DNA of 64,000 nucleotides, taken from positions 1-64,000 of the IMG/VR virus record IMGVR_UViG_3300007067_000087, one strand, 5' to 3'. Below are positions 1 through 54,751 of this stretch, piece by piece. A program made the translations under genes and the position numbers. A model generated the notes under the pieces. The model did not search any database. It worked only from the letters and a program-made list of their open reading frames with translations, and was not told where the DNA came from. This DNA is from a virus (Duplodnaviria; Caudoviricetes). Within the stretch, counting starts at the first letter, position 1. Every line of letters starts with the position of its first letter.

Positions 1-933
1 ATGAACCAAGACGTGATACAGTCCCATTATGCGGGTGCTGATATGGTTCAGTCTCAACCTCCCCGGTTGAGTAGCCTCATCGAAGAGAGCCGCCCGCTCC
101 AACTCTTTATCCAGTCTCTCCCCGCCATGCAATCGGCCTTTGCCCAGATTGGTACACCAAACTTTGCCGCCAATGTTCTGAACGCCTTGCCAAAGATTGC
201 ATTAGGCAAGTGGACAATTGAACAATATAACGGTTACTTGAAAATCCTGTCCGGTGGGGAAGCAGCTTTACTTCCTACAAGCGATTTGCAAGCATGGTAT
301 AGGGGAGTTCTGGCAAGTCTTGAAAGCGGGGTCACTGTCCGTTTAATGCCTGAATTTATCACGACAGCCCTAAAATCCCATTACCGAGTTACCAAGCAGC
401 AAGATGAATATATCATGCGCACAGTCAGCGTTCAAACATTCCCCGGTGGACGTAATGCTGCTTTACGTGGCAACGTCAATAAGGCTCGCAGATTATGCGA
501 AATCGAAGAATACGACCCTGTTCACTTAGAAGACTATAAAAGGATCGTCCGGCTCTGGTATCGTCAAAATGCTACCCTGAAATTTCGTACCTATGATAAA
601 ACCAGCATCGACTGGCTGTTAGAAAATTGGAAAGCCCTCAAAGAACATGTCCCCGATATTATCTGCCTTGGTGTCCGATATGAGGGAAAACTTATTTCCC
701 TTAATATGGGCTGCAAGTTGAGTGATAATTATTGGTGTGCCTATACGCAGCGTTTTGATCGCAATGCCCCTGTCAAGCATGCCAACATGCTCGGGTACAA
801 TGAATTAGCCTCACGGTTTAACAGCATTGAATTTGAAAATGACGGCACGGCAGATACGGCTTCAATACGGGCTTGGAAAGATAGGCTTGTACACGCAAAA
901 ATCCCTTTCTTTAAAATCAGTCCCAAGGTGTGA
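1..933 (+). CDS. DUF2156 / phosphatidylglycerol-lysyltransferase C-terminal-like GNAT-fold protein (may be 5'-truncated by window edge)
   Basis: DEYIMRTVSVQTFPGGRNAALRGNVNKARR resembles the DUF2156 EYIY..eDL..L.G.ky..kRnhin motif; C-terminal NDGTADTASIRAWK-type ending. Confidence 0.55.
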   Translation: MNQDVIQSHYAGADMVQSQPPRLSSLIEESRPLQLFIQSLPAMQSAFAQIGTPNFAANVLNALPKIALGKWTIEQYNGYLKILSGGEAALLPTSDLQAWYRGVLASLESGVTVRLMPEFITTALKSHYRVTKQQDEYIMRTVSVQTFPGGRNAALRGNVNKARRLCEIEEYDPVHLEDYKRIVRLWYRQNATLKFRTYDKTSIDWLLENWKALKEHVPDIICLGVRYEGKLISLNMGCKLSDNYWCAYTQRFDRNAPVKHANMLGYNELASRFNSIEFENDGTADTASIRAWKDRLVHAKIPFFKISPKV

Positions 934-1970
934 GTATGAGCAGCTATGATGTAATTTCCAAGGGGCTGTTACCGTTTCTCGGCGGGATGCGTAAATTTAT
1001 TCCTTTCCTGCTGGATGCCGCGCAAAAAGTCGTTCCTATGGATATGTGGCAAGATTGGAATGTCCATGATATGACTTGTGGCAGTTGCGCCTGTTCAGCC
1101 TGTTTCGGTTTTTATGGTATGAGTGTGAGTGCTAATGATCTGGCCTTACGTTCTTATATTCCGGCTAAGGTTATATTTTCTGGCAAGCCTCTAAAATCCA
1201 ATGTGCTTGAAAAAGTGCTTAAGATGGGTATTTATCGCCCCGACACCATTCCACCGGCACAAGAATTGATGCCGGAATTTTTGCACCCAGAGGCATGTGC
1301 TCTGTTTGACAAGCTTTATTATGCACATTTAAGCGGAGAATTTTCTGGTGATGAAGGAGACTTCCTGAAATATTTGGCGATAAGATGGGTGCTTCTTAAC
1401 AAGACCTATATGTATTTCCTCAAAATTCCCACCACCAATAAGCAACAGCTTGCCTTGCAGGGTGGACAATGGACAAAGCTCGTTGATATTTTGGATAACT
1501 CGTGCAAATATTTGCAAAAAACAGTTGGCGACATCAATACCCTTATTTTTGCGCTTAACTCTGCCCAGATGAAACGTCCTCCCAATATCATGTTGGGGGA
1601 TTGCCGTGAGAACATCAAGCATATTGATTGGAATATTCCGAGTTTTGTTCTGCTTAATCCACCAACAGCGGGCAATTCCGTATTCATGAAATCTAATCGG
1701 GTGCTGGATACACTTATTCACGGGGCAAGCCAACCTTTGGAAGATGGCACAATGCCCGCCGACTTATGGAAATCTCTTGTGCTTGATAGCTGTGCTCATA
1801 TTCCAAGCGGCCATTATGTGTTCAGTTTCGTTGGTGATGGGGCGGTAAGTTGGGAAGAGGGATATGAAACCGTCTTCAAACAAGTTGGCGACATCATCAC
1901 TGAGTGGACATTTTCGTGGCATGGTAATGAGGATAAAAAAGCTGGTCTTATCTTGATGAGGCGATCATGA
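930..1970 (+). CDS. Divergent D12/Dam-class adenine methyltransferase-like protein
   Basis: PFLGGMRKF (cf. PyxGGK), DMTCGSCACS...ANDL (motif I-like), FVLLNPPT (motif IV-like, Tyr replaced by Thr). Confidence 0.6.
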   Translation: MSMSSYDVISKGLLPFLGGMRKFIPFLLDAAQKVVPMDMWQDWNVHDMTCGSCACSACFGFYGMSVSANDLALRSYIPAKVIFSGKPLKSNVLEKVLKMGIYRPDTIPPAQELMPEFLHPEACALFDKLYYAHLSGEFSGDEGDFLKYLAIRWVLLNKTYMYFLKIPTTNKQQLALQGGQWTKLVDILDNSCKYLQKTVGDINTLIFALNSAQMKRPPNIMLGDCRENIKHIDWNIPSFVLLNPPTAGNSVFMKSNRVLDTLIHGASQPLEDGTMPADLWKSLVLDSCAHIPSGHYVFSFVGDGAVSWEEGYETVFKQVGDIITEWTFSWHGNEDKKAGLILMRRS

Positions 1971-2839
1971 AACGACCCGAAGATAAGATCAAGAGACAAA
2001 ATCAGTGGCTACGCCAACTGTGTTCGGTTGAGGAAGCCGCTCTCGGTATGGTCAAGCCTATTGACCTTTCTAATTGTGACCCTGAAATATTAGTTTGTGA
2101 CAAAGGCTTTTCTCGTGCTGTATGCGATTACTGGCGCGTGGTTTTAAGCTCTGAACCTCAATCCCCAAATTTTTCAGGGGCGGGACGATTTATCGCTCTT
2201 CTTGTCCGTGACAAGGTAAGTGGCGGTTTTATGGGTGTTGTAGGCTTATCAGACCCACCGATATATTGGACGCAACTTAACCAGTATTTGAGTTGGCAAG
2301 GGAATAAGCCTTTGCGACAAGCGCATCAGCACCGTGTTTTCATGATGCGCCGTTGTTTGCCACTTTATGAATTTGGACAGATGACAGGTGGTAAATTGTT
2401 GGCCTTGGTTGCCACCAGCCGCGAATTGATTAGATTGCTTGAGCTTCGCTACAGTTATCAATTCTTATTTTTTGGTATCCGCACCCTGCACGGTAAGGGC
2501 AGTCAATATAACCGGCTGCAACAAAGAGGCATTGAACTTATCAATGTTGATGCGAGCAACCACGGTTTCTATGGTATGGAATTACGCAAGAAAGCCCTCT
2601 CTTATTTGCGGGGTGAGGTTGATAATTACGGCAAGACTTCTACCTACACCATCAAAGAGCAGGTTGCCTATTGGCAGGAACGCTGGCTCACCGCTCGTAT
2701 GAAATCTTTAAATGTTGGTTCGCTGATTACACCTGCCCCCGAACAGTACCGATTATCAAATCTTCTTGCCACCAAGAAAATGACCCTTACCCCAACTATG
2801 GAGACTGATGACAATGGCCGTGAAACTGAACAAGAATAA
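1967..2839 (+). CDS. DUF4338 / DruA / Mom-like GNAT-fold protein
   Basis: LLVRDKVSGGFMGVVGLSDP and GGKLLALVATSRE...TLHGKGSQYNRL match DUF4338-type motifs as recalled. Confidence 0.6.
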   Translation: MKRPEDKIKRQNQWLRQLCSVEEAALGMVKPIDLSNCDPEILVCDKGFSRAVCDYWRVVLSSEPQSPNFSGAGRFIALLVRDKVSGGFMGVVGLSDPPIYWTQLNQYLSWQGNKPLRQAHQHRVFMMRRCLPLYEFGQMTGGKLLALVATSRELIRLLELRYSYQFLFFGIRTLHGKGSQYNRLQQRGIELINVDASNHGFYGMELRKKALSYLRGEVDNYGKTSTYTIKEQVAYWQERWLTARMKSLNVGSLITPAPEQYRLSNLLATKKMTLTPTMETDDNGRETEQE

Positions 2840-3749
2840 AGAAACTCCTGCTAAAAAATCTTCAAAAACTACCCCTGCCAACGATGGGTTACAGGTAACG
2901 AATTGGATTGACACGAGTGTCAACGATTCTGATGCAATTGATTTCCGGCTGGTTGACATCGACAAGGTGGAGGGCAACGACTACAACCCGAATGATATGG
3001 AAGCCGAGTTTTTCGAGGCCATTGTCCGCCAAGTACAAGATGAGGGGATGAATCAGCCTATTCTTGTGCGCGAAAATCCTGACAAACAAGGCTTCTATCT
3101 GATTGTTGACGGTGAACATCGCTGGAAGGCATGCAAGATTGCGGGCAAGACCAAGATCGGCGTGATTGTTGTTCCCTTTGATGAGACGCAAGCTAAAATC
3201 CGTACCCTGTCAATGAACAATCTACGCGGCCAGAATATCCCGATCAAACTGGCAAGGCTGCTGGTTGATATTCACAAAACCTATTCGCCGCAAGAAATCC
3301 GCGCCATGACCGGTATTGGTGAGGAAGAACAAACGTCTGTCTTGAAATTGTTGGAAGTGCCAACCTTTAACCCCAGTGATGGCATCAAAATTTCAACCAC
3401 CGATGTTGAACGGCCAATTTCTGTCAATATCATGCTGATGCCCGATGAAAACACTGCTTATACAACGGCCATGAAAAAAGCCATGAAGCTGATGGGGGAT
3501 GATGTGGTTGCCCTGATCGGTCACGAGGTCGGTGATTATGACAAAGCAATGAAAGCTGCGATGGGGATTGCTGGAGCAAAACTAAGAAATGTTGCCATGG
3601 CGGTTATTTGTGAGACATTTAATAACCTCTCCCCTGATCATAAAGAGCAGATTGCCAAGGCGGCTTACGCCAAAATCTATGACAAATTGGCACAGGATGC
3701 GGAAGTGAAAGAAGAGAAGAAACTGAAATCAGACAAAAAGGGTGCGTAA
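2808..3749 (+). CDS. ParB/Srx N-terminal domain protein
   Basis: NDYNPNDM, PILVRE, LIVDGEHRWKA, TLSMNNLRG are ParB-like motifs; directly upstream of terminase. Confidence 0.85.
   Translation: MTMAVKLNKNKETPAKKSSKTTPANDGLQVTNWIDTSVNDSDAIDFRLVDIDKVEGNDYNPNDMEAEFFEAIVRQVQDEGMNQPILVRENPDKQGFYLIVDGEHRWKACKIAGKTKIGVIVVPFDETQAKIRTLSMNNLRGQNIPIKLARLLVDIHKTYSPQEIRAMTGIGEEEQTSVLKLLEVPTFNPSDGIKISTTDVERPISVNIMLMPDENTAYTTAMKKAMKLMGDDVVALIGHEVGDYDKAMKAAMGIAGAKLRNVAMAVICETFNNLSPDHKEQIAKAAYAKIYDKLAQDAEVKEEKKLKSDKKGA
2933..2946. promoter_or_regulatory. Palindrome variant (inside parB)
   Basis: TGCAATTGATTTCC. Confidence 0.4.
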
Positions 3750-4396
3750 TGACTAATCGGCCAAGGATGCCGCTTAAACCCGGGCGGGTCAATCTTCGTA
3801 AAATCCGTAAAAAACTACCCAAGGATGAGCGCGATGATTTTCCTAAATCTGTTGCTGTACCGATTGACCCCACCTATCCGCGTGAGGGAGGCAACGGCAA
3901 TCAAGCCATGCACGATGAGCAGCAGGTTGCCCGTGTTGAATTGCTGATGCTGAAAGGTATCCGTACACCGCATCAATTGATGACGCTGCTTGATATTACC
4001 AGCCCAAATTTGATAGCAACCTATATCCGCCGTGTGCATGCAAGGTGGGAGATTGGCGGCTCAACCCGTGAATTTACCCGCCATCGCGGCGAAGCATTAA
4101 CAAGATTGGATTTGCTGGAAAGTGAAATGTGGTCAAAATTGAGCAATCTGGATGAAAAGGTCAGCCCGCAAATCACCCTCAATTACCTCAATGCGATTTT
4201 AAACGTGCAAACACGCCGCAATGATATTCTGGGGCTGACGGCTAAAGTTATCCAGCATATCGGTCTAACCACTAATGACCCAGAATTAGCCAAGAGGGCA
4301 GGAGACCATGAAGTCTTGACCAAGGTCGTCTCGCGCCTGTTTGAGCGGATTGAAAACCGTGCCAAGGTAATTGAGCATGAATCCTCAAGCACCTAA
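3749..4396 (+). CDS. Putative terminase small subunit
   Basis: Position immediately before TerL, helical, HTH-like segment GIRTPHQLMTLLDIT. Confidence 0.5.
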   Translation: MTNRPRMPLKPGRVNLRKIRKKLPKDERDDFPKSVAVPIDPTYPREGGNGNQAMHDEQQVARVELLMLKGIRTPHQLMTLLDITSPNLIATYIRRVHARWEIGGSTREFTRHRGEALTRLDLLESEMWSKLSNLDEKVSPQITLNYLNAILNVQTRRNDILGLTAKVIQHIGLTTNDPELAKRAGDHEVLTKVVSRLFERIENRAKVIEHESSST

Positions 4397-6329
4397 ACGG
4401 AAATATCGGCGTGTTGTCAAACGTAAACCCGAGCCAGAACCTCAAACCCGCACTGTCTTGACAACACATGATTTTGACCAGATTGCCGATGAGATTTTGA
4501 CAGAAATTGCCGCTGATTACCCAGAAGAAATTGATCTGGTTATGTCCTTTATCAAACAGGCGGCACATGATCCCGAAGCTATTAAAAATGTTTTGAAATA
4601 TAAGCACAAACCGGTTTCCCCTCGTGAATTTGTTGAGGGTAAAGCCTACATGGACAAGAAAGGCGTATTATGGCCCTCTGTCATGGATGCGCTGATCGAG
4701 ATTAATAATGGTAGCTATATTGAAGCCGTCTTGACCGGTGGTATCGGGGTGGCAAAAACCACCATTGCCCTCTATTCTCAAGCCTACCAGCTTTATCTGA
4801 TTTCCTGTTTACGTGACCCACATACCGAATTTGGTCTTGATCCATCATCAGAAATTGAAATTGTTTTCCAGTCCTTGAATGAAAGTTTGGCAAAGGGCAT
4901 TGATTATGAACGTTTTCGCGGGATGATTGAGTCTGCGCCTTATTTTCAGGCACATTTTCCGTTCGACAACTCTGTTTTGTCTTCTATGCGCTTTCCCAAC
5001 AAGGTTATTGTCAAACCGGTATCAGGCATGTCAACTGCAACCATTGGCGCAAATGTCATTGGTGGGGTGATTGATGAAATCAACTATATGGCCGTTACCG
5101 AAAACTCCAAGATGAATAGGGATGGCGGTACCTATGATCAAGCCATTGCCAATTATAATTCAATAGCAAGACGGCGGGAAAGTCGCTTTATGCAATTAGG
5201 GACATTACCGGGGATGTTATGCCTTGTTTCTTCGCGCAATTACCCGGGACAATTTACAGATACCAAGGAAGTAGAGGCCAGAACCAATCCGCGCATTTAT
5301 GTCTATGACAAATGTTTGTGGGAGTTACAGCCCGATAGGTTTTGTGGGGAGATATTTACGGTCTTTACCGGTGATGAAACCAGAAAACCGCGTCTATTGC
5401 GTGAAGATGAAACTGTTGCCCCACAAGATGAACAACTGATTAAATCTATACCGATTGAATATCGTCCGACATTTGAGAGTGACTTACTCAATGCGCTGCG
5501 AGAGATTGCCGGTGTTTCCACCCATGCTCTGCATCCCTTTATGGTTAATACCGAGGCTGTCGCCGCAGCTTTTGGCAAGACCCGCTCTATCCTGTCGCGT
5601 GAGGATTGCGACTTCGTGAATAGCCGTGTGCAGATTTATCCCAACTTCATCAGCCACAAGCAAGAGCCGCGTCATGTCCATATTGACTTGGCCTATGCTA
5701 AAGACAGTGCTGGTATTGCCGTTGGTCATGTATTCAAATTCATCGAGGTTAACCGTGGCGACCATGTAGAGACATTGCCCCTTATCCAGCTTGATTGCAT
5801 CTTGGAAGTGCAAGTGCCACCGGGTGGGGAAATTGACTTTTCCAATATTCGCCGTCTGCTCTATGCCTTGCGGGATAAAGCGCATCTACCGATTAAATGG
5901 GTAAGCTTTGACGGGTTTCAAAGTCGTGACTCAATGCAGATCTTGTACCAGCAAGGTTTCTCTGTCGGTTATCAATCAATGGATACAGACACCGAAGCCT
6001 ATGACATTACCAAACAGGCCATTTATGACGGTAGATTGCTCGCCCCTGAACATGCTAAAGCGCAACATGAGATGGTAACATTGGAAATTGATGTCAAACG
6101 CAAGAAAATTGACCACCCACCCCACTCATCCAAGGATGTTTCAGATGCTATCGCTGGTGCGGTGCGTGGCTTGACGGTGCGGCGTGAAATCTGGGCAAGG
6201 CATGGTGTTTCCCCGCACAGGATACCGGTCAATCTGCGGCAAGCGGCAGAACCAAAGAGCGCAACCCGTGTTCAAGAATATAATGATACGGAAATAGAAC
6301 TCGGCCATGACTGGCTGCAAACCGCGTAA
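4377..6329 (+). CDS. terL: Terminase large subunit
   Basis: Walker A-like TGGIGVAKTT, Walker B GGVIDEIN, RNase H-like HIDLAYAKD and DVSDAIAG. Confidence 0.85.
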   Translation: MNPQAPKRKYRRVVKRKPEPEPQTRTVLTTHDFDQIADEILTEIAADYPEEIDLVMSFIKQAAHDPEAIKNVLKYKHKPVSPREFVEGKAYMDKKGVLWPSVMDALIEINNGSYIEAVLTGGIGVAKTTIALYSQAYQLYLISCLRDPHTEFGLDPSSEIEIVFQSLNESLAKGIDYERFRGMIESAPYFQAHFPFDNSVLSSMRFPNKVIVKPVSGMSTATIGANVIGGVIDEINYMAVTENSKMNRDGGTYDQAIANYNSIARRRESRFMQLGTLPGMLCLVSSRNYPGQFTDTKEVEARTNPRIYVYDKCLWELQPDRFCGEIFTVFTGDETRKPRLLREDETVAPQDEQLIKSIPIEYRPTFESDLLNALREIAGVSTHALHPFMVNTEAVAAAFGKTRSILSREDCDFVNSRVQIYPNFISHKQEPRHVHIDLAYAKDSAGIAVGHVFKFIEVNRGDHVETLPLIQLDCILEVQVPPGGEIDFSNIRRLLYALRDKAHLPIKWVSFDGFQSRDSMQILYQQGFSVGYQSMDTDTEAYDITKQAIYDGRLLAPEHAKAQHEMVTLEIDVKRKKIDHPPHSSKDVSDAIAGAVRGLTVRREIWARHGVSPHRIPVNLRQAAEPKSATRVQEYNDTEIELGHDWLQTA

Positions 6330-6337
6330 AATTTACA

Positions 6338-6351
6338 TGCAATTGATTGCA
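6338..6351. promoter_or_regulatory. Palindrome site
   Basis: TGCAATTGATTGCA after terL stop. Confidence 0.75.
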
Positions 6352-6444
6352 GATGAATTTTACTTGACATGAAATGTCATCGGCGTAGACTCTTACCATA
6401 ACAATATAAAAGTGGGATTATCCTCACTAAAAGGAGTAAAGACC

Positions 6445-6792
6445 ATGGCAACGGTAAAGGTCACCTCAAAGGGGCAAATTACAATTCCGGCTCATATTCG
6501 TCATGAAATGCGGTTGATTGCAGGTGATAAGCTTGAGCTGGTGTGGATGGATGACGGGAGTTATACTCTTGTGCCGCTAACATATTCTGTTAAAGACTTA
6601 AAGGGAATCGTTCCATCTATTGGTAAACAGGTAACTCTTGAAGATATGCAAGAAGCGATTATTGCCGGATCTTTAGGGCAAGAATTGACCCCGAATGAAT
6701 TTACAGCCGAAATTTTAGAAAAAAGTGACAAGGATGAAGATTTACATTACTTTGATAGTGCCGAAGCAATGTTTAATAATTTGAATATTTAG
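6445..6792 (+). CDS. AbrB/MazE/SpoVT-family antitoxin-like protein with a RelB/DinJ-like tail
   Basis: KVTSKGQITIPAHIR...AGDKL; tail PNEFTAEILE...FDSAEAMFNNL; AGGAG SD before ATG 6445. Confidence 0.8.
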   Translation: MATVKVTSKGQITIPAHIRHEMRLIAGDKLELVWMDDGSYTLVPLTYSVKDLKGIVPSIGKQVTLEDMQEAIIAGSLGQELTPNEFTAEILEKSDKDEDLHYFDSAEAMFNNLNI

Positions 6793-7207: not shown

Positions 7208-7491
7208 GTGTTGCCTAATATCTGGCGTGAGGAGGCTCGTAGTGATTTGCGGCAAATTATCCGATATATTGCCAATGAGAATCCCGCAGCGGTGCGGCGT
7301 GTAAAACAGCGGATAGAGAATGCCGTATTACCCGTCTCAGAGCACCCCTATATGTACCGGATGAGCGAGCGTGTCCCCGGACTTAGGGAGGTTATTGCGC
7401 ACCCCAATTATATTGTATTTTATCGTGTTACAGAAAGAGGGTTGAGGTCGTTAATATCGTCCATGCTCGCAGGGAATTTCCCACGGAATAA
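7208..7491 (+). pseudogene. relE: RelE/ParE toxin, frameshifted near the C-terminus
   Basis: IWREEARSDL...PGLREVIAHPNYIVFYRV; the expected ending VEVVNIVHARREFPTE* lies in a shifted frame from 7441 (GGG run 7439-7441). Confidence 0.75.
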
Positions 7492-7511
7492 AATTTCCCC
7501 CTCTAAAATAT

Positions 7512-7525
7512 TGCAATTGATTTCG
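7512..7525. promoter_or_regulatory. Palindrome variant
   Basis: TGCAATTGATTTCG before PPDK-like gene. Confidence 0.65.
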
Positions 7526-7599
7526 TTTTTGTGTTGTTCATCTACGTCTTTCTGGTAAGATTTAGTGATAATGATTTCACTTAATCCAAGGAGGGATGA

Positions 7600-9600
7600 A
7601 TGTACGGCAAACGTATTTTCCTATTCGGTGACAAAGATAATTGTGACTGGCAAGGCTCTTATGACGAAGCCAAAAAGCTACTTGGTGGCAAGGGTGCAGG
7701 GCTGGTTGAAATGGTCAAGGCAGGGCTTCCTGTCCCACCGGGTTTTACCATCACCACCACAACCTGCAATGAATATCTTGCATTGCCTGAGAATGAACGA
7801 GCCAACTTTATCAAGCAATTGATGGTTGAGGTTTTGGCCTTTGACGAACGTCTGAAATGGGCTTATGGTACGGATTACTCTCCACTTGTCAGTGTTCGTT
7901 CCGGGGCATCGGTGTCAATGCCCGGTATGATGGACACAATCTTGAATATCGGCCTGACAACGGGTAGTTTTCCTGTTTGGGCGAACAGATTGGGAGAAAG
8001 AGCAGCATGGGACAGTTATCGCCGTCTTATCCAGATGTTGGGTTCAACCGCTTACAATATTCCCCATAACAAATTTGAAGAAATCTTGAGCGGTGTTAAA
8101 AATACCGCACAGGTGAGTTCTGATACGGATTTATTAATTGGCGAGTTACAAATCGCCTCTTATCATTATACGGAGCTTTTTAAGAAAAGTGTAGGAGCAG
8201 AATTTCCAGACAGTCGTGAAGAACAACTGGCTGCCGCAATCAGGGCTGTTTTTGACAGTTGGGAAAACCCAAGAGCTATTGAATATCGCAAGATCAATAA
8301 TATTGATTCAGCCATAGGAACGGCCGTCACTGTTCAGGCTATGGTGTTCGGCAATATGAATGAACAAAGCGGTTCAGGCGTGGCTTTCACCCGCAACCCG
8401 TTGACGGGAGAGAAAAAGCTGCTTGGTGAATATCTCCCCAATGCACAAGGAGAAGATGTTGTCGCAGGTATCAGAACCCCGATTGATGTCCGCGCTTACA
8501 TTGCAGATCATAATCCGTCTTGGGCAGATGAATTTTGGCAGCTTGAGAACATCTTGGAGGGCATGTATAAAGACATGGTGGATTTTGAGTTTACCGTGCA
8601 AGACAACAAACTCTACATCCTGCAAGCGCGTGTAGGAAAAAGATCAGCACAATCGGCTTTTACCATCGCCATTGATTTAGTAGAAGAACAGGTCATTGAT
8701 GAACAGACAGCTTTAAGCCGATTAACAAAAGCACAATTCAAAACATTACGCCGTCCACGCATTGATGATGCTTTCAAGGAACTCCCACATTATCAAGGTT
8801 TAGCGGCTTGCCCCGGCATTGTCAGCGGCATACCGGTTTTTAGTTCACAATCTGCAATTGATTGCAACAAGCCTTGTGTTTTGATCACAGAAGAAACAAC
8901 GCCTGATGATATTACTGGCATGAATGCTGCTGTTGGTATTCTTACCCGCACCGGTGGGGCAACCAGTCATGCCGCTGTTGTGGCAAGAGCGATGGATAAA
9001 GTCTGTATTGTTGGCTGTACTGATCTTGATTTTGAAGCCCTCAAAAATGCCAAGCAGATTACATTGGACGGCAGTACTGGTCGGGTATGGATTGATACGG
9101 ATGTTCCCGTCATTGATAGCTCCGACAGCAAGTTGATCAAAACCGTTCAAGAATGGAGTTTTAAGAACACGAATTACGACCTCAGCACCCCGGCCTATGT
9201 TGAAACCGAGCATGACCAGATCATATCTGCCGCTTATTGGTGGGGGCAAGAAGAGGTGTTGGAAGCCGTATTGAGTGATTTATGTGGCAAATCTAATCTC
9301 GGTGATGTTATTTTTGACATAAAATCAAAACGCCATTTCCTCAATGAAGCCGATACGTTGCTTTATGATTGCTCCAATTTTGATGAAGCAAAAGACTTTT
9401 CTAAAACTATTATCAAACAATTAAAGTCAAAGGCCAAACACTTAAAGGGACTGTATTTGGTGGATACGGATTTTGAACCTGACAGCAAGCAAGAAAAAAC
9501 TTTGTTGGATGCTGGTTATCAAATGCTTGCCTCGAATAAAACCAGTTTACGCCGTGCCGTTAATGCTGATACAGCCGCCTTTATTGCCTTATCTGCTTGA
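7600..9600 (+). CDS. PPDK-like dikinase: ATP-grasp plus phospho-His swivel domain, lacking the PEP/pyruvate TIM barrel
   Basis: LLGGKGAGL, VSVRSGA.VSMPGMMDTILN, AQGEDVVAGIRTP, GGATSHAAVVAR; only about 165 aa follow the His domain. Confidence 0.9.
   Translation: MYGKRIFLFGDKDNCDWQGSYDEAKKLLGGKGAGLVEMVKAGLPVPPGFTITTTTCNEYLALPENERANFIKQLMVEVLAFDERLKWAYGTDYSPLVSVRSGASVSMPGMMDTILNIGLTTGSFPVWANRLGERAAWDSYRRLIQMLGSTAYNIPHNKFEEILSGVKNTAQVSSDTDLLIGELQIASYHYTELFKKSVGAEFPDSREEQLAAAIRAVFDSWENPRAIEYRKINNIDSAIGTAVTVQAMVFGNMNEQSGSGVAFTRNPLTGEKKLLGEYLPNAQGEDVVAGIRTPIDVRAYIADHNPSWADEFWQLENILEGMYKDMVDFEFTVQDNKLYILQARVGKRSAQSAFTIAIDLVEEQVIDEQTALSRLTKAQFKTLRRPRIDDAFKELPHYQGLAACPGIVSGIPVFSSQSAIDCNKPCVLITEETTPDDITGMNAAVGILTRTGGATSHAAVVARAMDKVCIVGCTDLDFEALKNAKQITLDGSTGRVWIDTDVPVIDSSDSKLIKTVQEWSFKNTNYDLSTPAYVETEHDQIISAAYWWGQEEVLEAVLSDLCGKSNLGDVIFDIKSKRHFLNEADTLLYDCSNFDEAKDFSKTIIKQLKSKAKHLKGLYLVDTDFEPDSKQEKTLLDAGYQMLASNKTSLRRAVNADTAAFIALSA
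8853..8866. promoter_or_regulatory. Palindrome site (intragenic)
   Basis: TGCAATTGATTGCA in PPDK-like gene. Confidence 0.65.
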
Positions 9601-10440: not shown

Positions 10441-10914
10441 GTGGCTCATGATATTGATAGAATGGTGACTGAACGAAAAAGGCTATTAAAGCAAAAGGCT
10501 ATCATTGAGGAACGTTTGAGTATTATTGAGGGCATACTTGCCTTGAATAAAAAACTTGAAAATGCTCCAGCCGTTTATTTTGGTGATAATTTCTCTGAAT
10601 TTTCAATCGTAGGAAGAGGTAGGAAAAGACCCCGAGGTGTATTACCCCCGTCAGAAATCGTGACCAATGTTCGTGAATTGCTCATAGAAGCCGGTAGGCC
10701 GATGAACCGGCGTGAATTACTTAAAGAGCTTGAGAGGCGGAATATACCTGTCATAGGAAAAGACCGCGCAAAAGTTGTCGGTACAATCGTTTGGCGAGCT
10801 AAAGAGCCAGATGGCTCGCCCTCCTTTATTAATACAGAGAAAGGTTATTGGCCGTCTGACATTCCTTTACCATCAGTACAATCAACACAAACAACAGGAA
10901 ATAAAAATGAATAA
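10441..10914 (+). CDS. Coiled-coil plus winged-helix hypothetical protein
   Basis: N-terminal heptads; VRELLIEAGRPMNRRELLKEL...KGYW is wHTH-like. Confidence 0.5.
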   Translation: MAHDIDRMVTERKRLLKQKAIIEERLSIIEGILALNKKLENAPAVYFGDNFSEFSIVGRGRKRPRGVLPPSEIVTNVRELLIEAGRPMNRRELLKELERRNIPVIGKDRAKVVGTIVWRAKEPDGSPSFINTEKGYWPSDIPLPSVQSTQTTGNKNE

Positions 10915-11401
10915 ATTGAAACCAAATGGACAATTTGAACTAAATTTGGGCTGGAAGAGAGCGGGCATTACATTGGATATAACGGGTGGGCCTTATGATG
11001 CTTATCCCGGCCAACCCTATTTGGGGGTCTGTGTGCGGGCAGAACAGACAGCGGGACGGCTCATGGATGTACATCTACCGATTGATGATTTTTCTGTTCC
11101 CCGACACGATGATGAAGTACTGAAAGCCCTTGAAAAGACAATCCGCGCTGGTCTGGCGGGCAGGAAAATCTATATTGGGTGTATGGGTGGATGGGGACGC
11201 ACGGGGTTATTTATGGCTCTGCTTGTCAAGGCGTTAGGTGTAGAAGAACCGGTGAGTTTCATCCGCCAACATTATACGCCCCGTGCCGTTGAGACCAAGG
11301 AACAGCAATTCTATGTCAAGAATTTTGATGTGTCTCCCATCAGCCGCAATTTGTGGAAGTGGGCTTGGAAAGCAAGACTGTTCTCATTTTTTAGAAAATA
11401 A
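10907..11401 (+). CDS. CX5R protein-tyrosine/dual-specificity phosphatase-like protein 1
   Basis: LPIDDFSVP (general-acid loop), IYIGCMGGWGRTG, AVETKEQ. Confidence 0.85.
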   Translation: MNKLKPNGQFELNLGWKRAGITLDITGGPYDAYPGQPYLGVCVRAEQTAGRLMDVHLPIDDFSVPRHDDEVLKALEKTIRAGLAGRKIYIGCMGGWGRTGLFMALLVKALGVEEPVSFIRQHYTPRAVETKEQQFYVKNFDVSPISRNLWKWAWKARLFSFFRK

Positions 11402-12563: not shown

Positions 12564-13229
12564 ATGAAACATAAGAATTTGAATGACGTTCTATATGGTG
12601 ATCGCGCCGACATTAGACACAACCGTGATGTAATTGATTTTGCAGAACAAGGAAAGCAACAAGAACGTTGTTATCACACCCACCCGCCCTTGAAACTGCC
12701 AAACAGTAAATTTGTCATTTATGGCGGCTCATGCAGTTCTCCGATTGTCAAGGACGCTGATATTTATATTGGCCTTTGCCATACGATGAAGCAGACGGAA
12801 AGGCGTTTCCCATGGGTGAAAGGTGAAGAGATTTATTTTCCCATCCCCGATATGAGTATCCCGAAAGACGTTGAGAATTTTAAAGCTCTTATCACATGGA
12901 CAAAGAAACAGATTGAGGCAGGTGCAAAAGTCCATGTTGGTTGTATCGGCGGACATGGGAGAACAGGGACATTTCTTGCCTCTCTTGTTAGTCTTTATGG
13001 TGAAAAAGATGCGATCCGTTATGTTCGTAAACATTATTGCCACAAGGCGGTTGAGTGTAAGCTACAGGTAGAGTTTTTAGGTCTGCATTTCGGAATAATA
13101 AACGCCGAGGGCTACAAGGACAAACAAGATCGCAAAAAATCTTTCAATTCCAGACAACAGCCTGTAACTAAAAAAGGCGCAAATTTAAAACTCATCACCC
13201 CTGTTCAAAGTGCTATGGCAATATGGTAA
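12564..13229 (+). CDS. CX5R protein-tyrosine/dual-specificity phosphatase-like protein 2
   Basis: FPIPDMSIP, VHVGCIGGHGRTG, AVECKLQ. Confidence 0.85.
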   Translation: MKHKNLNDVLYGDRADIRHNRDVIDFAEQGKQQERCYHTHPPLKLPNSKFVIYGGSCSSPIVKDADIYIGLCHTMKQTERRFPWVKGEEIYFPIPDMSIPKDVENFKALITWTKKQIEAGAKVHVGCIGGHGRTGTFLASLVSLYGEKDAIRYVRKHYCHKAVECKLQVEFLGLHFGIINAEGYKDKQDRKKSFNSRQQPVTKKGANLKLITPVQSAMAIW

Positions 13230-20806: not shown

Positions 20807-20833
20807 TATGCCGTCATCCGTATGGAGATAATA

Positions 20834-21982
20834 ATGAATTATGAAGGCCGCAGCGGACATTACGTAAAACAGCCAACTGGATATAGAGCGTTTATTCCGA
20901 AAGATTTGCCACCCAATCCCGTCATTGAAATAGATGATGAGATGCAAGGGTTGCTGTCACGAGCAGATCGCGCGTTAGGTCGCCTAGATGGTTCTATACA
21001 AACCTTACCCAATCCTAATTTGTTTATGATGATGTATGTGCGTAAAGAGGCGGTTTTATCAAGTCAAATAGAGGGTACACAGGCATCAATAAACGATCTT
21101 TTGAAAGCTGAAGTTGATATACATGATATCACGACACCAAAAGATGTCTCCGAGGTTATAAATTATGTCAAGGCCATGAACTACGGCTTGCAGCGATTAA
21201 ATGACCTCCCGTTGTCGATACGCCTAATCAGGGAAATTCATAAACATCTGCTTGAAGGGGTGCGCGGGTATAAGCTTCAACCGGGCGAACTACGCACAAG
21301 TCAAAATTGGATTGGAGCATCAGGTTCTGGTTTAGATTCTGCAAGTTATATCCCGCCACCACATCATATCGTGCCGGATGCTTTAGGCAAGCTAGAACTG
21401 TTTTTACACGCAAACGATCACATTCCGCCACTAATAAAAATAGGACTGGCTCACGCCCAATTCGAGACTATTCATCCATTCCTTGATGGAAATGGTAGGG
21501 TAGGGAGATTATTAATAACGCTACTTTTAACAGAAAGGAATCTGCTGTTAAAACCAGTGCTCTATATTTCGCATTATTTTAAAGCGCACCAGCAAGAATA
21601 TTACGCTAGATTACAAAATACACGAGTTGCTGGTGATTGGGAATCATGGCTTAAATTTTTCTTAAAAGGTGTTTATGAAGTTTCGGAACAGGCAACAGAA
21701 ACAGCAAGAAATATTGTTGAGCTAAGAGAGCGGCATAGACTGATAATATCTGATAAATTTGGCAGTGCGGCTGGAAACGCCAACAAGATTTTAGAGCTTT
21801 TGTATGAAAGACCTACGATAGGTATTCAGAGTGTAAAAGAGAAAATGGATATAAGCAGACAAAGCATTTACCCTTTGATAGAAAAATTTGTTGAGCATAA
21901 CATACTTGTTGAGATCACTGGCAAATCAAGAAATAAAAAATATCGGTATTTTGATTATATTGATTTATTCTCAAATCTTTGA
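20834..21982 (+). CDS. fic: Fic family protein (class II, internal inhibitory helix) with C-terminal HTH
   Basis: HPFLDGNGRVGR; SSQIEG inhibitory motif. Confidence 0.9.
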   Translation: MNYEGRSGHYVKQPTGYRAFIPKDLPPNPVIEIDDEMQGLLSRADRALGRLDGSIQTLPNPNLFMMMYVRKEAVLSSQIEGTQASINDLLKAEVDIHDITTPKDVSEVINYVKAMNYGLQRLNDLPLSIRLIREIHKHLLEGVRGYKLQPGELRTSQNWIGASGSGLDSASYIPPPHHIVPDALGKLELFLHANDHIPPLIKIGLAHAQFETIHPFLDGNGRVGRLLITLLLTERNLLLKPVLYISHYFKAHQQEYYARLQNTRVAGDWESWLKFFLKGVYEVSEQATETARNIVELRERHRLIISDKFGSAAGNANKILELLYERPTIGIQSVKEKMDISRQSIYPLIEKFVEHNILVEITGKSRNKKYRYFDYIDLFSNL

Positions 21983-31265: not shown

Positions 31266-32990
31266 TTAAGGGCAGTCTCCAATAAATTCATTCAAAGCCT
31301 TGGTAATCAGCTTGCGGCGTTCTGCCAAGAAGTCTTTGTAATTTACAACTTCCAGTAATTCACGATTTTCATAAGGGATTGCTTGGGTAGAGAAAATCGA
31401 ACCATCACCGCCGCGTTCAGCTAAAAGATCAACGAAATAATCTTTCGGTTCTGCATTGCTGATTTTCTTGTTGGTTCTTGCTCCGATAAAAGCAAAATTG
31501 GCAATATCATTGATTTCTTGTTTCTCGTACCTGCCCTTTAACACGGCTTGTGGGAAAATATGATGCGCTTCCAACAGGTTTTTATCCTCAGCATTTCGGG
31601 AAGAAAGTTGTAGGGTAGAGTGCCAGTCTTGCGCCCCATTGGCACGGAAAGCAAGAAACATGGTTTTAAATAAGGCACTGCTTTGATTGCGCCCCTCCAA
31701 CTCGTCCTCAACAATATCAAGTCTACCAAATTGCACCCGCAACCGATCAATCATTTCTGAAATCGGCTTGTTTTGGCGGATTGTTGATAAATCCTGATCC
31801 ATCAATGTTTCAACAGAACCTCTTGAAAATCTAGCTTTGGCATTTGCCAGCAACACCCAATAGCGCAATTGCTTTGCTTCATCAGAACCTAGTCTGAAAT
31901 CTCGCATATGACAAAAATAGGCAACAATCGAAGTCAGATGTGGGGAGGAAAGTAAATTTGGATTATCAATTCCTGTATTGTTGCGCAAGAAATCAATTGC
32001 AAAGCGCATTCCCCTACATGCTTTACCCCAAGCCTCTTGCAATTGATCTTTGGTAAGGCTTGAAAGAGAAGAAAACTTTGACTGCTCGGTAGCGAAAATT
32101 ACGAGGTTTCTTATGTGAACGCCTAAATCAAGGTCGAAATTATTTCTGGTGCATTCTTCCTGAAACTCTTCAAATATCTTTAATGAGCCTTGCCATTTGG
32201 CGGTTATTTGCGCCAAGGCCAAATCAGAACCACGCAATTTTGCTCCCAATGAATTAACACGGACAAAAATCTCTGTCACCTCTTCATAAGATAAGTTTTT
32301 CCCCAATATGTCCAAACGGTAAGTGTAGTCTTTAATCTTGCGCAATTGGGAAAGACGTTTCTGATATTTAGCATAGCGCGGGTCATCCCAACCTGTAAGC
32401 CCCGTTTGTCTTAAAATCTCACTTTCGTCCTTGTTGAATACATCTGAAACTTTTACCCATTGGGGCAAACGTTCTAGTCTTCCGAATGCTACAACAAAAG
32501 TCATCCTATTATAGATTGTAAGCAACTCGTCTTCTGTTGCTTCTGGGGCATCAGCTTCAACCTCTTCAGTATTTTCTAAATCTTTCTCACTATTACCGGT
32601 ATCTTCAACCTCCGTTACAACTTCTAAATGGTCGGGATGTTCCAGATTAAAGAGTAACTCCATCGGTGAAGCACGTCCCTTAACATAAAGGGGTGTTCCT
32701 CTGATAACAGCAGATAATGAAGTGAGGCGTTGCTGCCCGTCCAGCAACAAATGAGTAGCAGAAAGTCCCGTGGTGTTTTGGCTAACGGCAAACTCTCGCA
32801 AAGGAACGGCTTGGTCCCCCATAGCCCACAGCAAGATGGCACCTGATGGATATTCGCGGTAGAGGGAATCGAATAAATCCCTTACCCTTGAGGAACGCCA
32901 TACATACGGTCTTTGCATTTCCGGCAAACGAATTTCACCATCCTCAATCTTCCTGATGAGTGTCCCAACACTTGCGTCCGCTCTTTCCAC
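31266..32990 (-). CDS. GmrSD-like protein (DUF262 plus HNH/DUF1524), type IV restriction family
   Basis: LPEMQRPYVW, LLLDGQQRLTSL, EIFVRVNS; HHIFP...IANFAFI...N. Confidence 0.85.
   Translation of the reverse strand: MERADASVGTLIRKIEDGEIRLPEMQRPYVWRSSRVRDLFDSLYREYPSGAILLWAMGDQAVPLREFAVSQNTTGLSATHLLLDGQQRLTSLSAVIRGTPLYVKGRASPMELLFNLEHPDHLEVVTEVEDTGNSEKDLENTEEVEADAPEATEDELLTIYNRMTFVVAFGRLERLPQWVKVSDVFNKDESEILRQTGLTGWDDPRYAKYQKRLSQLRKIKDYTYRLDILGKNLSYEEVTEIFVRVNSLGAKLRGSDLALAQITAKWQGSLKIFEEFQEECTRNNFDLDLGVHIRNLVIFATEQSKFSSLSSLTKDQLQEAWGKACRGMRFAIDFLRNNTGIDNPNLLSSPHLTSIVAYFCHMRDFRLGSDEAKQLRYWVLLANAKARFSRGSVETLMDQDLSTIRQNKPISEMIDRLRVQFGRLDIVEDELEGRNQSSALFKTMFLAFRANGAQDWHSTLQLSSRNAEDKNLLEAHHIFPQAVLKGRYEKQEINDIANFAFIGARTNKKISNAEPKDYFVDLLAERGGDGSIFSTQAIPYENRELLEVVNYKDFLAERRKLITKALNEFIGDCP
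31988..32001. promoter_or_regulatory. Palindrome variant (inside GmrSD-like gene)
   Basis: AGAAATCAATTGCA. Confidence 0.35.
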
Positions 32991-53443: not shown

Positions 53444-53676
53444 TGTGTAAACTTCATTTGCCATGGATAAAAATTCTGATTATCGGCTGGCTGATTATTC
53501 TTCTTCTTGCTTCTTTTTCAACATCAAAACCTCATATTACACCTGTTTATTTTCAGATGAATCACGTTCAGGGAAAAGTCCTGGCATCCATTGATAAGCA
53601 AGACGCGTTGGAAAATTTAAAGAAAGCGGTGCGCGTAGACTCTTGGAGGTCAAAACGCCATATTCTATCAAAGTAG
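53443..53676 (+). CDS. Small membrane protein, 3' end overlapped by the antisense fic
   Basis: N-terminal TM; coupled to holin. Confidence 0.35.
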   Translation: MCKLHLPWIKILIIGWLIILLLASFSTSKPHITPVYFQMNHVQGKVLASIDKQDALENLKKAVRVDSWRSKRHILSK

Positions 53677-54751
53677 AAGTAATGCGCCGAGCTTGGCGAT
53701 CCGTCACACCCAACAAAGATGCGACATCAGAGCGAGGCAACTCACCACGAAACAATACAGCTTCAAGAACTTGTTCTGATTTTGTCGGCAACACATCATT
53801 ATGAATTTCATTCTTTGCCCAATTTATAATACGGCGGCGCAAATGGTTTGGAGCAACCAATTCACGCATGAATTGCACTTGATCAATGCAAGTTTCGAGG
53901 AAGAAACGGGTAAAAGATGCAAGTGCTTCTTCACTTAAATGACCACGACCATCAAGATCATTACGGCGCGGCAAATCACAAGCAGCCAAATGCTTTTTGT
54001 AGGCTTGTTCATTGCGCGCAAGCCCACGCGCTACAGACCAAATACCACCCGTATCAAGCGCATTTAGCAACATGGCATGAGACATGAGCCGTATAACGCG
54101 ACCATTACCATCAAGGAACGGGTGAATCCATGCCAGACGGTGATGTGCTGCTGCGATAGAAAGAATAGTGTCAGCGCGTCCTAATTTTGCATAAGCTTCC
54201 TGGAAACGTTTTAAGAAGCGAGGAATTGATTGTGGGGCTATTGGAATGTGTCGTCCAACTTGAACATGGAGTGAACGAAACGCCCCGGGAACAACCAGTG
54301 AACGTTTTCCATTGGCAGGGTTTTCAACAGTACGTAATTCATCTGGTAGTAGATCATAAAATCGTCTATGAATATCTTGAATAGATTCAAGTGTTGTGGC
54401 TGGGTTAGTTAAACCTTTATTATCAATCCAAGCTTGCACATCGATATGTGCTTTAGCCTCAAGCTGGAGATTGCGTCTTTCTGAATCTGTACTATAATCG
54501 TTTCTTAATGCCCGTTCAATATCTATAGGGTGCGTGTTGTGTCCTTCAATAAGATTGCTGTAATAGCAATTCATGGAACGCACGAGATCAGATAAAGCGC
54601 AAACAATTTCATTTGGTAGACTACTACGAAAGGCAGCAGATTGATCGATTAACTCCATAGATAAATCAATCAGTGCGCCTCGGTGACGTGACGATTCGGA
54701 AATGAGCATAGGCTCCATAAGACCAATGCTTTCACCCTCATATATTGTCAT
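53537..54751 (-). CDS. fic: Fic family protein (class II) with C-terminal HTH
   Basis: HPFLDGNGRVIR; YSNLIEG inhibitory motif. Confidence 0.9.
   Translation of the reverse strand: MTIYEGESIGLMEPMLISESSRHRGALIDLSMELIDQSAAFRSSLPNEIVCALSDLVRSMNCYYSNLIEGHNTHPIDIERALRNDYSTDSERRNLQLEAKAHIDVQAWIDNKGLTNPATTLESIQDIHRRFYDLLPDELRTVENPANGKRSLVVPGAFRSLHVQVGRHIPIAPQSIPRFLKRFQEAYAKLGRADTILSIAAAHHRLAWIHPFLDGNGRVIRLMSHAMLLNALDTGGIWSVARGLARNEQAYKKHLAACDLPRRNDLDGRGHLSEEALASFTRFFLETCIDQVQFMRELVAPNHLRRRIINWAKNEIHNDVLPTKSEQVLEAVLFRGELPRSDVASLLGVTDRQARRITSTLIEYGVLTSKSLRAPLSLNFPTRLAYQWMPGLFPERDSSENKQV

Follow-up and report, generated by a model that had tools for sequence, protein, structure and literature searches.

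A putative ParB-linked DNA-modification module at the head of the packaging genes of a Caudoviricetes provirus

At the very start of the IMG/VR "provirus" record IMGVR_UViG_3300007067_000087 (Duplodnaviria; Caudoviricetes) lie four consecutive genes, hereafter O1 to O4, which encode a DUF2156 (LPG_synthase_C) protein, a protein with a predicted Dam-like methyltransferase fold, a DruA/DUF4338-type GNAT and an orphan ParB, respectively, and run directly into the terminase genes. The record is 77 kb long with an estimated completeness of 77%; the window considered here is the stretch formed by its first 64 kb, window position 1 being the start of the record. Comparison with related phages places this block in a module with an invariant core, namely DUF488, a DruA-type GNAT and ParB, sitting at the head of the packaging genes (terS - terL). 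We see about an even chance that the block encodes a ParB-assisted, late, post-replicative DNA hypermodification pathway equipped with amine-directed tailoring enzymes. This proposal builds on what was observed at the level of folds and families, operon coupling, conserved gene order, variability of the cassette and natural fusions.

A conserved module at the head of the packaging genes

The initial annotation, made from the letters of the window alone, had described four overlapping or coupled open reading frames (ORFs) in positions 1-3749 with terS and terL directly 3' of them, an organisation confirmed at these positions as follows:

1-933, + strand: O1, DUF2156/LPG_synthase_C protein, 310 aa
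936-1970, + strand: O2, predicted Dam-like methyltransferase fold (ORF 930-1970, with an alternative GTG start at 930)
1967-2839, + strand: O3, DruA/DUF4338-type GNAT, 290 aa
2808-3749, + strand: O4, orphan ParB, 313 aa
3749-4396, + strand: putative terS, on the basis of position and size; conserved directly before terL in relatives
4371-6329, + strand: terL (start at 4371 or 4377), matching PHROG phrog_2 "terminase large subunit" at E 3.7e-5

The junctions are tight, with an ATGA at 1967-1970 (O2/O3), an overlap of 32 nt between O3 and O4, a TAATG at 3747-3751 (O4/terS) and an overlap of 26 nt between terS and terL. Since stops and starts overlap and a consensus scan revealed no enrichment of promoters or terminators within it, O1 to O4 are best viewed as one operon running into the terminase genes. 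All four ORFs have many conserved homologues co-located on shared contigs and are thus real genes rather than chance ORFs. O1 can be considered complete although the record begins at its ATG, because its alignment with homologues of 297-316 aa starts at residue 1, and the ATG at 936 is the likely true start of O2, as relatives begin with MSSFD. Orthologues of terL in relatives reach E-values down to 1e-288 and are located before portal genes, while the putative terS gave no family match in family profile searches. No tRNA gene was found in the window.

Loci were retrieved around relatives of O3 and all their ORFs were scored against the window proteins. The four genes co-occur across related phages, contrary to one of the refuting conditions set in the initial annotation, and about ten lineages of these phages share the gene order, one of them with a Mu-type head module:

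L002/L019, L004/L009, L010, L012/L011 and L014/L016 (window type): DUF488 - O1 - O2 - O3 - ParB - terS - terL
L013 and L020: DUF488 - O1 - second O1 paralogue - O3 - ParB - terS - terL
L015: DUF488 - O3 - ParB - terS - terL
L005/L006: DUF488 - 176-aa methyltransferase-like (NPPF) - O1-family - O3 - ParB
L007: DUF488 - DUF2156 - aminopropyltransferase-like - DUF2156 - DUF2156 - O3 - aminopropyltransferase-like - ParB - terS - terL
L059-L061 (Mu-type portal prophage, 11 contigs): DUF488 - O2::O3 fusion - metallopeptidase - ParB - ... - terL

Between DUF488 and the DruA-type GNAT, the cassette comprises 0-3 DUF2156 genes together with 0-2 methyltransferase-fold or aminopropyltransferase-like genes; as such, O1 and O2 are exchangeable accessories, one lineage (L015) having neither. 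The assignment to the O1 family in L005 reached an hhalign probability of 99.95%, and the two aminopropyltransferase-like genes of L007 matched the NCBIfam polyamine aminopropyltransferase model at E 1.5e-32 and 1.6e-26. Every cassette enzyme belongs to a family acting on amine or hydroxyl nucleophiles, i.e., by aminoacylation, N-methylation or aminopropylation. The O1-O4 block would represent the 3' two-thirds of a module ordered DUF488 - tailoring cassette - DruA-GNAT - ParB - terS - terL. The DUF488 gene, which was not found in the record, is missing from the window because the record starts at O1, and the DUF488 profile has no PDB relative. In L007, three DUF2156 paralogues and two aminopropyltransferase-like genes are arranged around the DruA-GNAT (L007:6538-11723), and the DUF488 protein has a SWIM-like CxC...CxH N-terminus.

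Folds and families of the four proteins

The family calls made initially, namely DUF2156, Dam-like S-adenosylmethionine (SAM)-binding protein, DruA/DUF4338 and ParB, proved correct in profile matches, models and fold searches, and the structure searches returned the expected folds rather than unrelated ones. Considering first the core of the module, O3 matches the Pfam family DruA (PF14236) with 34.2 bits against a cut-off of 27 (E 2e-8, profile positions 74-174 of 297) as well as the PADLOC DruA model (E 1e-5). Its structural model (predicted local distance difference test, pLDDT, 90.6) exhibits a GNAT fold, the class to which DUF4338 was assigned by Aravind and colleagues (PMC10853773), and the top 50 Foldseek matches in the PDB are GNATs without exception; SpeG and N-acyl amino acid or acyl-homoserine lactone (AHL) synthases figure among its fold matches. 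O3 also matches DruA clusters of the Atlas at a template modelling score (TM) of 0.72-0.75, one such cluster carrying ParB_N, and its best matches among predicted viral structures are uncharacterised giant-virus proteins (E 4e-14 to 2e-8), while its family profile retrieved nothing useful among PDB sequences. O3 is regarded as a core member of the module and the candidate enzyme acting on DNA.

The initial annotation had further called this protein Mom-like. The GNAT fold is indeed shared, but the O3 family profile has no sequence relation to Mu Mom (hhalign probability 0.07%), so that O3 is Mom-like only at the level of the GNAT fold. When 48,161 solved chains were searched independently of Foldseek, Mom (8bv8_B) came out at rank 2 (Z 9.8, root-mean-square deviation (rmsd) 3.5, 157 residues), with FeeM at Z 9.9 and dozens of ordinary GNATs at Z 8-9.5. 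By eye, and without residue-level superposition, an Arg ends strand beta-4 of O3 (RRC), as in Mom (LNR). The essential features of Mom are R111, S124, R151 and a helix-turn-helix (HTH)-like insertion.

Membership of the DruA family also brings in a different explanation, in which the genes form a prophage-borne anti-phage defence related to Druantia or HerA-DruA that senses or marks incoming DNA. Bacterial DruA homologues adjoin HerA-like ATPases, and the prophage does carry other defence genes, i.e., GmrSD and toxin-antitoxin pairs; yet O1 to O4 are embedded in and coupled to the late packaging operon, outside the defence island of the prophage, and neither DruB-E nor a HerA gene lies nearby. 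Moreover, the phage O3 clade is distinct from bacterial DruA proteins (identity 21-27%), and druB-druE are absent beside O3 in all phage loci, where the neighbours are DUF488, DUF2156, methyltransferase, ParB and terminase genes. We hold a defence role to be the least probable of the explanations considered here. As an observation in its own right, L032:4479-8897 and L025:4559-8978 contain the gene of a HerA-like (DUF87) ATPase and a gene of about 385 aa, after which comes a full-length DruA homologue of bacterial origin (about 400 aa), with no adjacent druB-E; these three genes may constitute an undescribed defence system.

The second core protein at hand, O4, contains ParB_N (PF02195, 48.9 bits) and exceeds the cut-off of TIGR00180 (64.4 against 58.45 bits). 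Its box II reads GEHRWKA, DGEHRW being invariant or nearly so in 12 sequences, and identity ranges from 44 to 72% across 11 relatives; an HTH-like segment was recognised by eye rather than by a tool. The 77-kb record contains no other ParB_N gene and, at about 77% completeness, no ParA-type ATPase was detected in it as an AAA_31 match, the control being positive in 14/14 genomes. O4 is a core member of the module, with an N-terminal domain predicted to bind nucleoside triphosphate (NTP), and the candidate DNA loader or activator.

A possible target for such loading is the dispersed palindrome GCAATT(A/G)ATTGC, found at some 20 places in the window (27 matches to the 13-mer with at most 1 mismatch, 0.41 being expected), mostly at gene boundaries:

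6339, 8854, 11405, 13236, 16874, 22055, 24915, 27090, 31210, 34557, 41580, 51566, 56250 and 58340: examples of palindrome sites
2934-2945, no strand assigned: copy with 1 mismatch in the 5' part of the ParB gene

The palindrome reaches a density of 9-11 sites per 15-20 kb in L002, L004, L010, L012 and L014 and also occurs in L017, L007 and L020, while it is absent from L013, L015, L005 and L059; in 7 loci the ParB start has a copy no further than about 130 nt away. The palindrome may act as a parS-like loading site that guides the enzymes to phage DNA or as the operator of a phage regulator ("stoperator"-like). The parS-like reading is weakened because L013 and L015 lack the palindrome although their ParBs are 66-68% identical.

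These data bear on a further explanation, namely an accessory for packaging or maintenance in which ParB binds the repeated site to organise, segregate or mark the genome and the transferases acylate or methylate terminase, ParB or another protein. It would account for the module always lying directly upstream of terS/terL and being coupled to them, for the dispersed palindrome, which in 7 loci has a copy where the ParB gene begins, and for an O4 score above the partition-protein cut-off of TIGR00180. However, no ParA is found in the record, DNA-modification systems (Dpd, Dnd, 5mYOX) offer known cases of enzymes partnered by ParB, L013 and L015 do without the palindrome, and variable amine-directed transferases are hard to explain as packaging regulators. 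Taken together, this makes an accessory of packaging distinctly improbable.

Turning to the cassette, the Pfam score of O1 for LPG_synthase_C (PF09924) is marginal, i.e., 27.6 bits against a cut-off of 27.5. The family assignment is nonetheless solid, as PF09924 is present in most of 48 O1 homologues, the O1 family profile matches the stand-alone DUF2156 structure PDB 2hqy (E 2e-4) and the Atlas structure match reaches TM 0.75-0.78 over 269-276 residues to LPG_synthase_C proteins. O1 is a soluble, single-domain, tandem-GNAT protein of the type of the MprF C-terminal domain, and the MprF-type N-terminal membrane (flippase) domain is absent from its 310 aa, which match stand-alone domain proteins. 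From this family membership, O1 is a candidate aminoacyl-tRNA-dependent aminoacyl transferase acting as an accessory cassette member.

O2 has no Pfam match at E <= 0.1 and scores E 0.009 on the PADLOC MTase_II model; its family profile retrieved nothing useful among PDB sequences and was not significant against T4 Dam (hhalign probability 0.2%). The structural model (pLDDT 88.8), on the other hand, exhibits a class I SAM-methyltransferase fold, the longest structural alignments of which are with DpnM (2dpm; Z 13.3, rmsd 4.1, 232 residues) and EcoDam (2g1p; Z 13.1, 226-236 residues), whereas non-Dam methyltransferases align over only about 170 residues. The family displays Dam-like motifs, namely X (GLLPFxGG), I (HD(M/I)TCGSC) and II (ANDLA), while motif IV reads NPPT, with Thr246 invariant in 20 sequences, and not (D/N)PP(Y/F/W). 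O2 is an accessory cassette member with, on the strength of the model, a Dam-like class I SAM-methyltransferase fold and an atypical motif IV. Homologues of O2 were also sought in the genes preceding O3 in L005 and L007; BLASTP found none, these genes being of the DUF2156 family, and the O2 profile matched the 176-aa methyltransferase-like protein of L005 with an hhalign probability of 12% only.

Natural fusions tie the three core parts and O2 together, and the DruA domain to DNA-handling domains. A full hidden Markov model (HMM) search yielded 1,301 DruA-like cluster representatives, many of them multi-domain. The 610-aa protein P0150 is a genuine fusion of the O2 and O3 families, its O2 part matching the O2 family with an hhalign probability of 98%; it carries Pfam MethyltransfD12 (PF02086, 25 bits against a cut-off of 22) and the motif IV DPPTY. 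A second apparent O2-O3 fusion, P0135 (634 aa), was discarded as a frameshift or read-through artefact, the homology ending at LNP and being followed by Arg/Ala-rich out-of-frame sequence. In P0264, a domain of the uracil-DNA glycosylase (UDG) superfamily is fused to DruA, and 47 long DruA representatives include NUMOD3 (6/47), LAGLIDADG (8/47) and GIY-YIG (6/47). In the Atlas, a cluster of 235 proteins, mostly viral and 644 aa long, is matched by the O3 model at TM 0.72 and annotated with DruA in 100% and ParB_N in 94%; since phmmer with O4 found no ParB domain in the top 150 DruA representatives, the co-occurrence of DruA and ParB_N derives solely from this cluster annotation. From the literature, a DUF4338-GNAT fused to DndF was described by Aravind's group (PMC10853773), and ParB-fold fusions bind cytidine triphosphate when joined to DUF488-HTH and guanosine triphosphate when joined to acetyltransferases (bioRxiv 10.1101/2025.10.10.680097).

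The fusions also bear on a biosynthetic alternative, in which the enzymes would make a small molecule, polyamine-like and aminoacylated, methylated or aminopropylated, serving as a co-packaged DNA counter-ion, signal or toxin, with ParB a mere neighbour. Such a product would suit the two aminopropyltransferase-like and three DUF2156 genes of L007, as well as the SpeG and N-acyl amino acid/AHL synthases among the O3 fold matches. There are also stand-alone DUF2156 relatives, VlmA for instance, that aminoacylate small molecules. The fusions of DruA with ParB_N, UDG and a D12 methyltransferase nevertheless point to DNA, the window version has no polyamine synthesis gene, and the matches to SpeG and FeeM are generic for the GNAT fold, which leaves small-molecule synthesis highly improbable.

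Proposed DNA modification and its weighing

Two sets of published findings provide precedents for a DNA-directed function. With Gly-tRNA(Gly) as the donor, the GNAT Mom attaches glycine to N6 of adenine in dsDNA, and a rearrangement then takes place on the base (PMC13219725; bioRxiv 10.1101/2023.03.24.534169). Besides, phage ParB homologues activate their cognate T-dioxygenases on dsDNA, and ParB co-occurs with 27% and terminase genes with 19% of the T-dioxygenase pathways (PMC13229309). Together with the conserved order, the fusions and the Dam/DpnM layout of O2, these Mom and ParB precedents support a DNA-directed function; from there, we infer DNA as the substrate, the donors, the order of the steps and the role of DUF488.

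In the pathway as proposed, the module would install a covalent modification on phage DNA late, after replication and just before packaging. In a first step, O4 would bind NTP and load on phage dsDNA, possibly at the palindrome, where it would recruit or activate O3. In a second step, O3 would acylate or aminoacylate a base, in the way that Mom uses Gly-tRNA. In a third step, the cassette enzymes would elaborate the side chain, O1 adding an amino acid from aminoacyl-tRNA and O2 N-methylating with SAM; the NPPT motif may replace the base-stacking aromatic because the target would be a side-chain amine and not a flipped base. In a fourth step, the extra DUF2156 copies or aminopropyltransferase-like enzymes of relatives would lead to lineage-specific adducts.

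DNA modification is supported by the lack of a ParA partner for O4 in the record and its coupling to the terminase genes, as well as by Mom being the rank-2 structural neighbour of O3. The initial annotation had proposed a pathway made up of these four genes; a shared DNA-directed function is supported by the fusions and by the Mom and ParB precedents, but the membership has to be revised, the conserved core being DUF488, DruA-GNAT and ParB with O1 and O2 exchangeable. Its statement that the combination was not recognised as a characterised system still holds, no publication having been found that deals with a DruA-ParB-DUF488 module, with DUF2156 proteins of phages or with the activity of DruA.

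Several points weigh against DNA modification. To begin with, neither chemistry nor sequencing provides evidence of modified DNA in this phage or any of its relatives. Regarding O3, the score of Mom amounts to a tie, because FeeM and ordinary GNATs score alike, the two proteins are unrelated in sequence as given above, and Mom is not in the top 50 predicted viral fold matches. Regarding the cassette, the Pfam score of O1 is marginal and its tRNA dependence would follow from the family as a whole, while the NPPT motif raises the possibility that O2 does not methylate DNA bases or has no catalytic activity. The record has no TET/JBP or thymidylate-synthase-like genes, i.e., no supplier of a reactive base, and the fusions with homing endonucleases may reflect invasion by mobile elements instead of function. 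Finally, no cultured phage among 50,697 records carries the module or close homologues: megablast of window 1-6400 against these phage records returned no match, O1 had no tblastn match in cultured-phage records, and O3 had only distant DUF4338 matches in Pelagibacter phages, in an unrelated context. These only cultured-phage DUF4338 matches lie, in the Pelagibacter phage Mosig (L063:3980-5864), beside peptide deformylase, several 2-oxoglutarate-Fe(II) oxygenases and MazG.

The presence in L059 of a metallopeptidase between the fusion protein and ParB, which recalls packaged effector proteins (PMC5512222), weighs in the same direction and leads to the last of the alternatives. There, the proteins would be effectors of counter-defence or host takeover acting on host proteins, tRNA or nucleotides, possibly packaged and injected, with the GNAT acylating a host target, DUF2156 and the methyltransferase modifying tRNA or peptides, and ParB serving as an NTPase or nicking DNase. 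Packaged "polyvalent" effector proteins beside late genes do contain phage GNATs and ParB-like domains (PMC5512222), a phage metallopeptidase lies inside the module in L059, close relatives have, just upstream, a RapZ_C domain of the RNA-binding type and a dCTP-deaminase-like gene, and published GNAT toxins acetylate aminoacyl-tRNA. By contrast, the fusion partners of DruA are DNA enzymes or binders (ParB_N, D12, UDG, homing endonucleases) and not protein-targeting modules, the layout of O2 matches DNA methyltransferases, and O4 has a canonical ParB N-terminal domain with an HTH-like segment, not a DdrB-like form. An effector function is for these reasons considered unlikely.

Returning to DNA modification, a wider version of the proposal is more doubtful and is put forward tentatively, namely that of a widespread ParB-guided multi-enzyme pathway attaching aminoacyl-derived side chains to phage DNA, N-methylated, aminoacylated or aminopropylated according to lineage, with the DruA-GNAT as the DNA transferase and charged tRNA as the donor; it would be a second, modular tRNA-dependent family after Mom. 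If so, a biochemical activity would be assigned to DUF488 and to DruA of Druantia, HerA- and Dnd-linked systems. If the module modifies DNA, it is a form of phage DNA hypermodification in which ParB is the helper and the donor is of the tRNA type, and it would enlarge phage DNA chemistry by a new set of enzymes (DruA-GNAT, DUF2156, NPPT methyltransferase, DUF488) and probably by new base adducts. Such adducts could find use as tools and in DNA that resists restriction or CRISPR. The module would also extend two recent findings, i.e., tRNA-dependent modification by Mom and ParB as an activator, and offer a first way into the function of DruA/DUF4338, a domain present in Druantia type I, DndF fusions, HerA-linked systems and giant viruses. 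With 4-6 genes, the module is compact, well conserved and directly testable by heterologous expression.

Neighbouring genes and comparison with known systems

Beyond the module, the following genes of the window deserve mention:

6412-6792 and 7208-7558: MazE-type antitoxin and ParE-type toxin, respectively, between terL and the remaining early/late genes
7600-9600: 666-aa dikinase-like protein with PPDK_N and PEP-utilizers (His-swivel) domains, 3' of terL and conserved there in most related phages; it might have a role in the proposed modification pathway or in a different one
10775-11401 and 12564-13229: a pair of dual-specificity-phosphatase-like (PTP-SAK) genes on either side of a 379-aa gene without family assignment, kept in L002 and L004
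14444-16831 and 16857-18632: family A DNA polymerase between the terminase and portal genes, an unusual mixing of replication and packaging modules
20822-21982, + strand, and 53537-54751, - strand: two Fic/DOC-domain proteins, one with an HTH
31266-32990, - strand: GmrSD-type (type IV, modification-dependent) restriction enzyme in the prophage, which matters if the DNA of the phage itself is modified

Among known systems, Mu Mom is, like O3, a phage-encoded GNAT fold expressed late, just before packaging. Mom acts alone, without ParB, DUF488 or tailoring enzymes, whereas the O3 locus has them, including a second transferase, O1, from an aminoacyl-tRNA-dependent family; O3 further differs by its own long N- and C-terminal helices. 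With respect to DruA of type I Druantia, O3 passes both the Pfam and PADLOC DruA models and matches structurally at TM 0.72-0.75, but it comprises 290 aa against about 400, covers the central part of the profile only, and is phage-encoded beside ParB and terminase.

O1 resembles the C-terminal domain of MprF/aminoacyl-phosphatidylglycerol synthase (aaPGS) and the stand-alone DUF2156 protein 2hqy over the whole domain. Compared with MprF, it is soluble, 310 aa long, devoid of the flippase domain and located in a phage packaging operon, phosphatidylglycerol being unlikely as the acceptor. O2 shares with the Dam/D12 methyltransferases the motif order X, I, II, helical target-recognition insert and IV; in place of the Dam motif IV DPPY it has NPPT, with Thr for the aromatic residue, and its motif I reads TCGSC.

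Regarding O4, ParB without ParA beside a DNA-modifying enzyme, often with terminase genes, is also encountered in the 5mYOX T-dioxygenase pathways, where ParB is needed for activity on dsDNA (PMC13229309), and the ParB-like DpdB/DndB likewise stand beside a DNA-modifying enzyme. Here, in contrast to 5mYOX, a GNAT takes the place of the dioxygenase as the partner, TET/JBP being absent from the record, and O4 appears to keep an HTH-like segment that, according to the same report, the 5mYOX-associated ParBs lack. Lastly, the phage thymidine/cytosine hypermodification clusters, with 5-hydroxymethyldeoxyuridine (5-hmdU) kinase and amino acid:DNA transferases (AADT) or with TET and glycosyltransferases, rely on entirely different enzyme families, the present module having no hydroxymethylase, dioxygenase, P-loop kinase or AADT; what they have in common with it is the logic of a core step followed by lineage-specific tailoring, and a location near the packaging genes.

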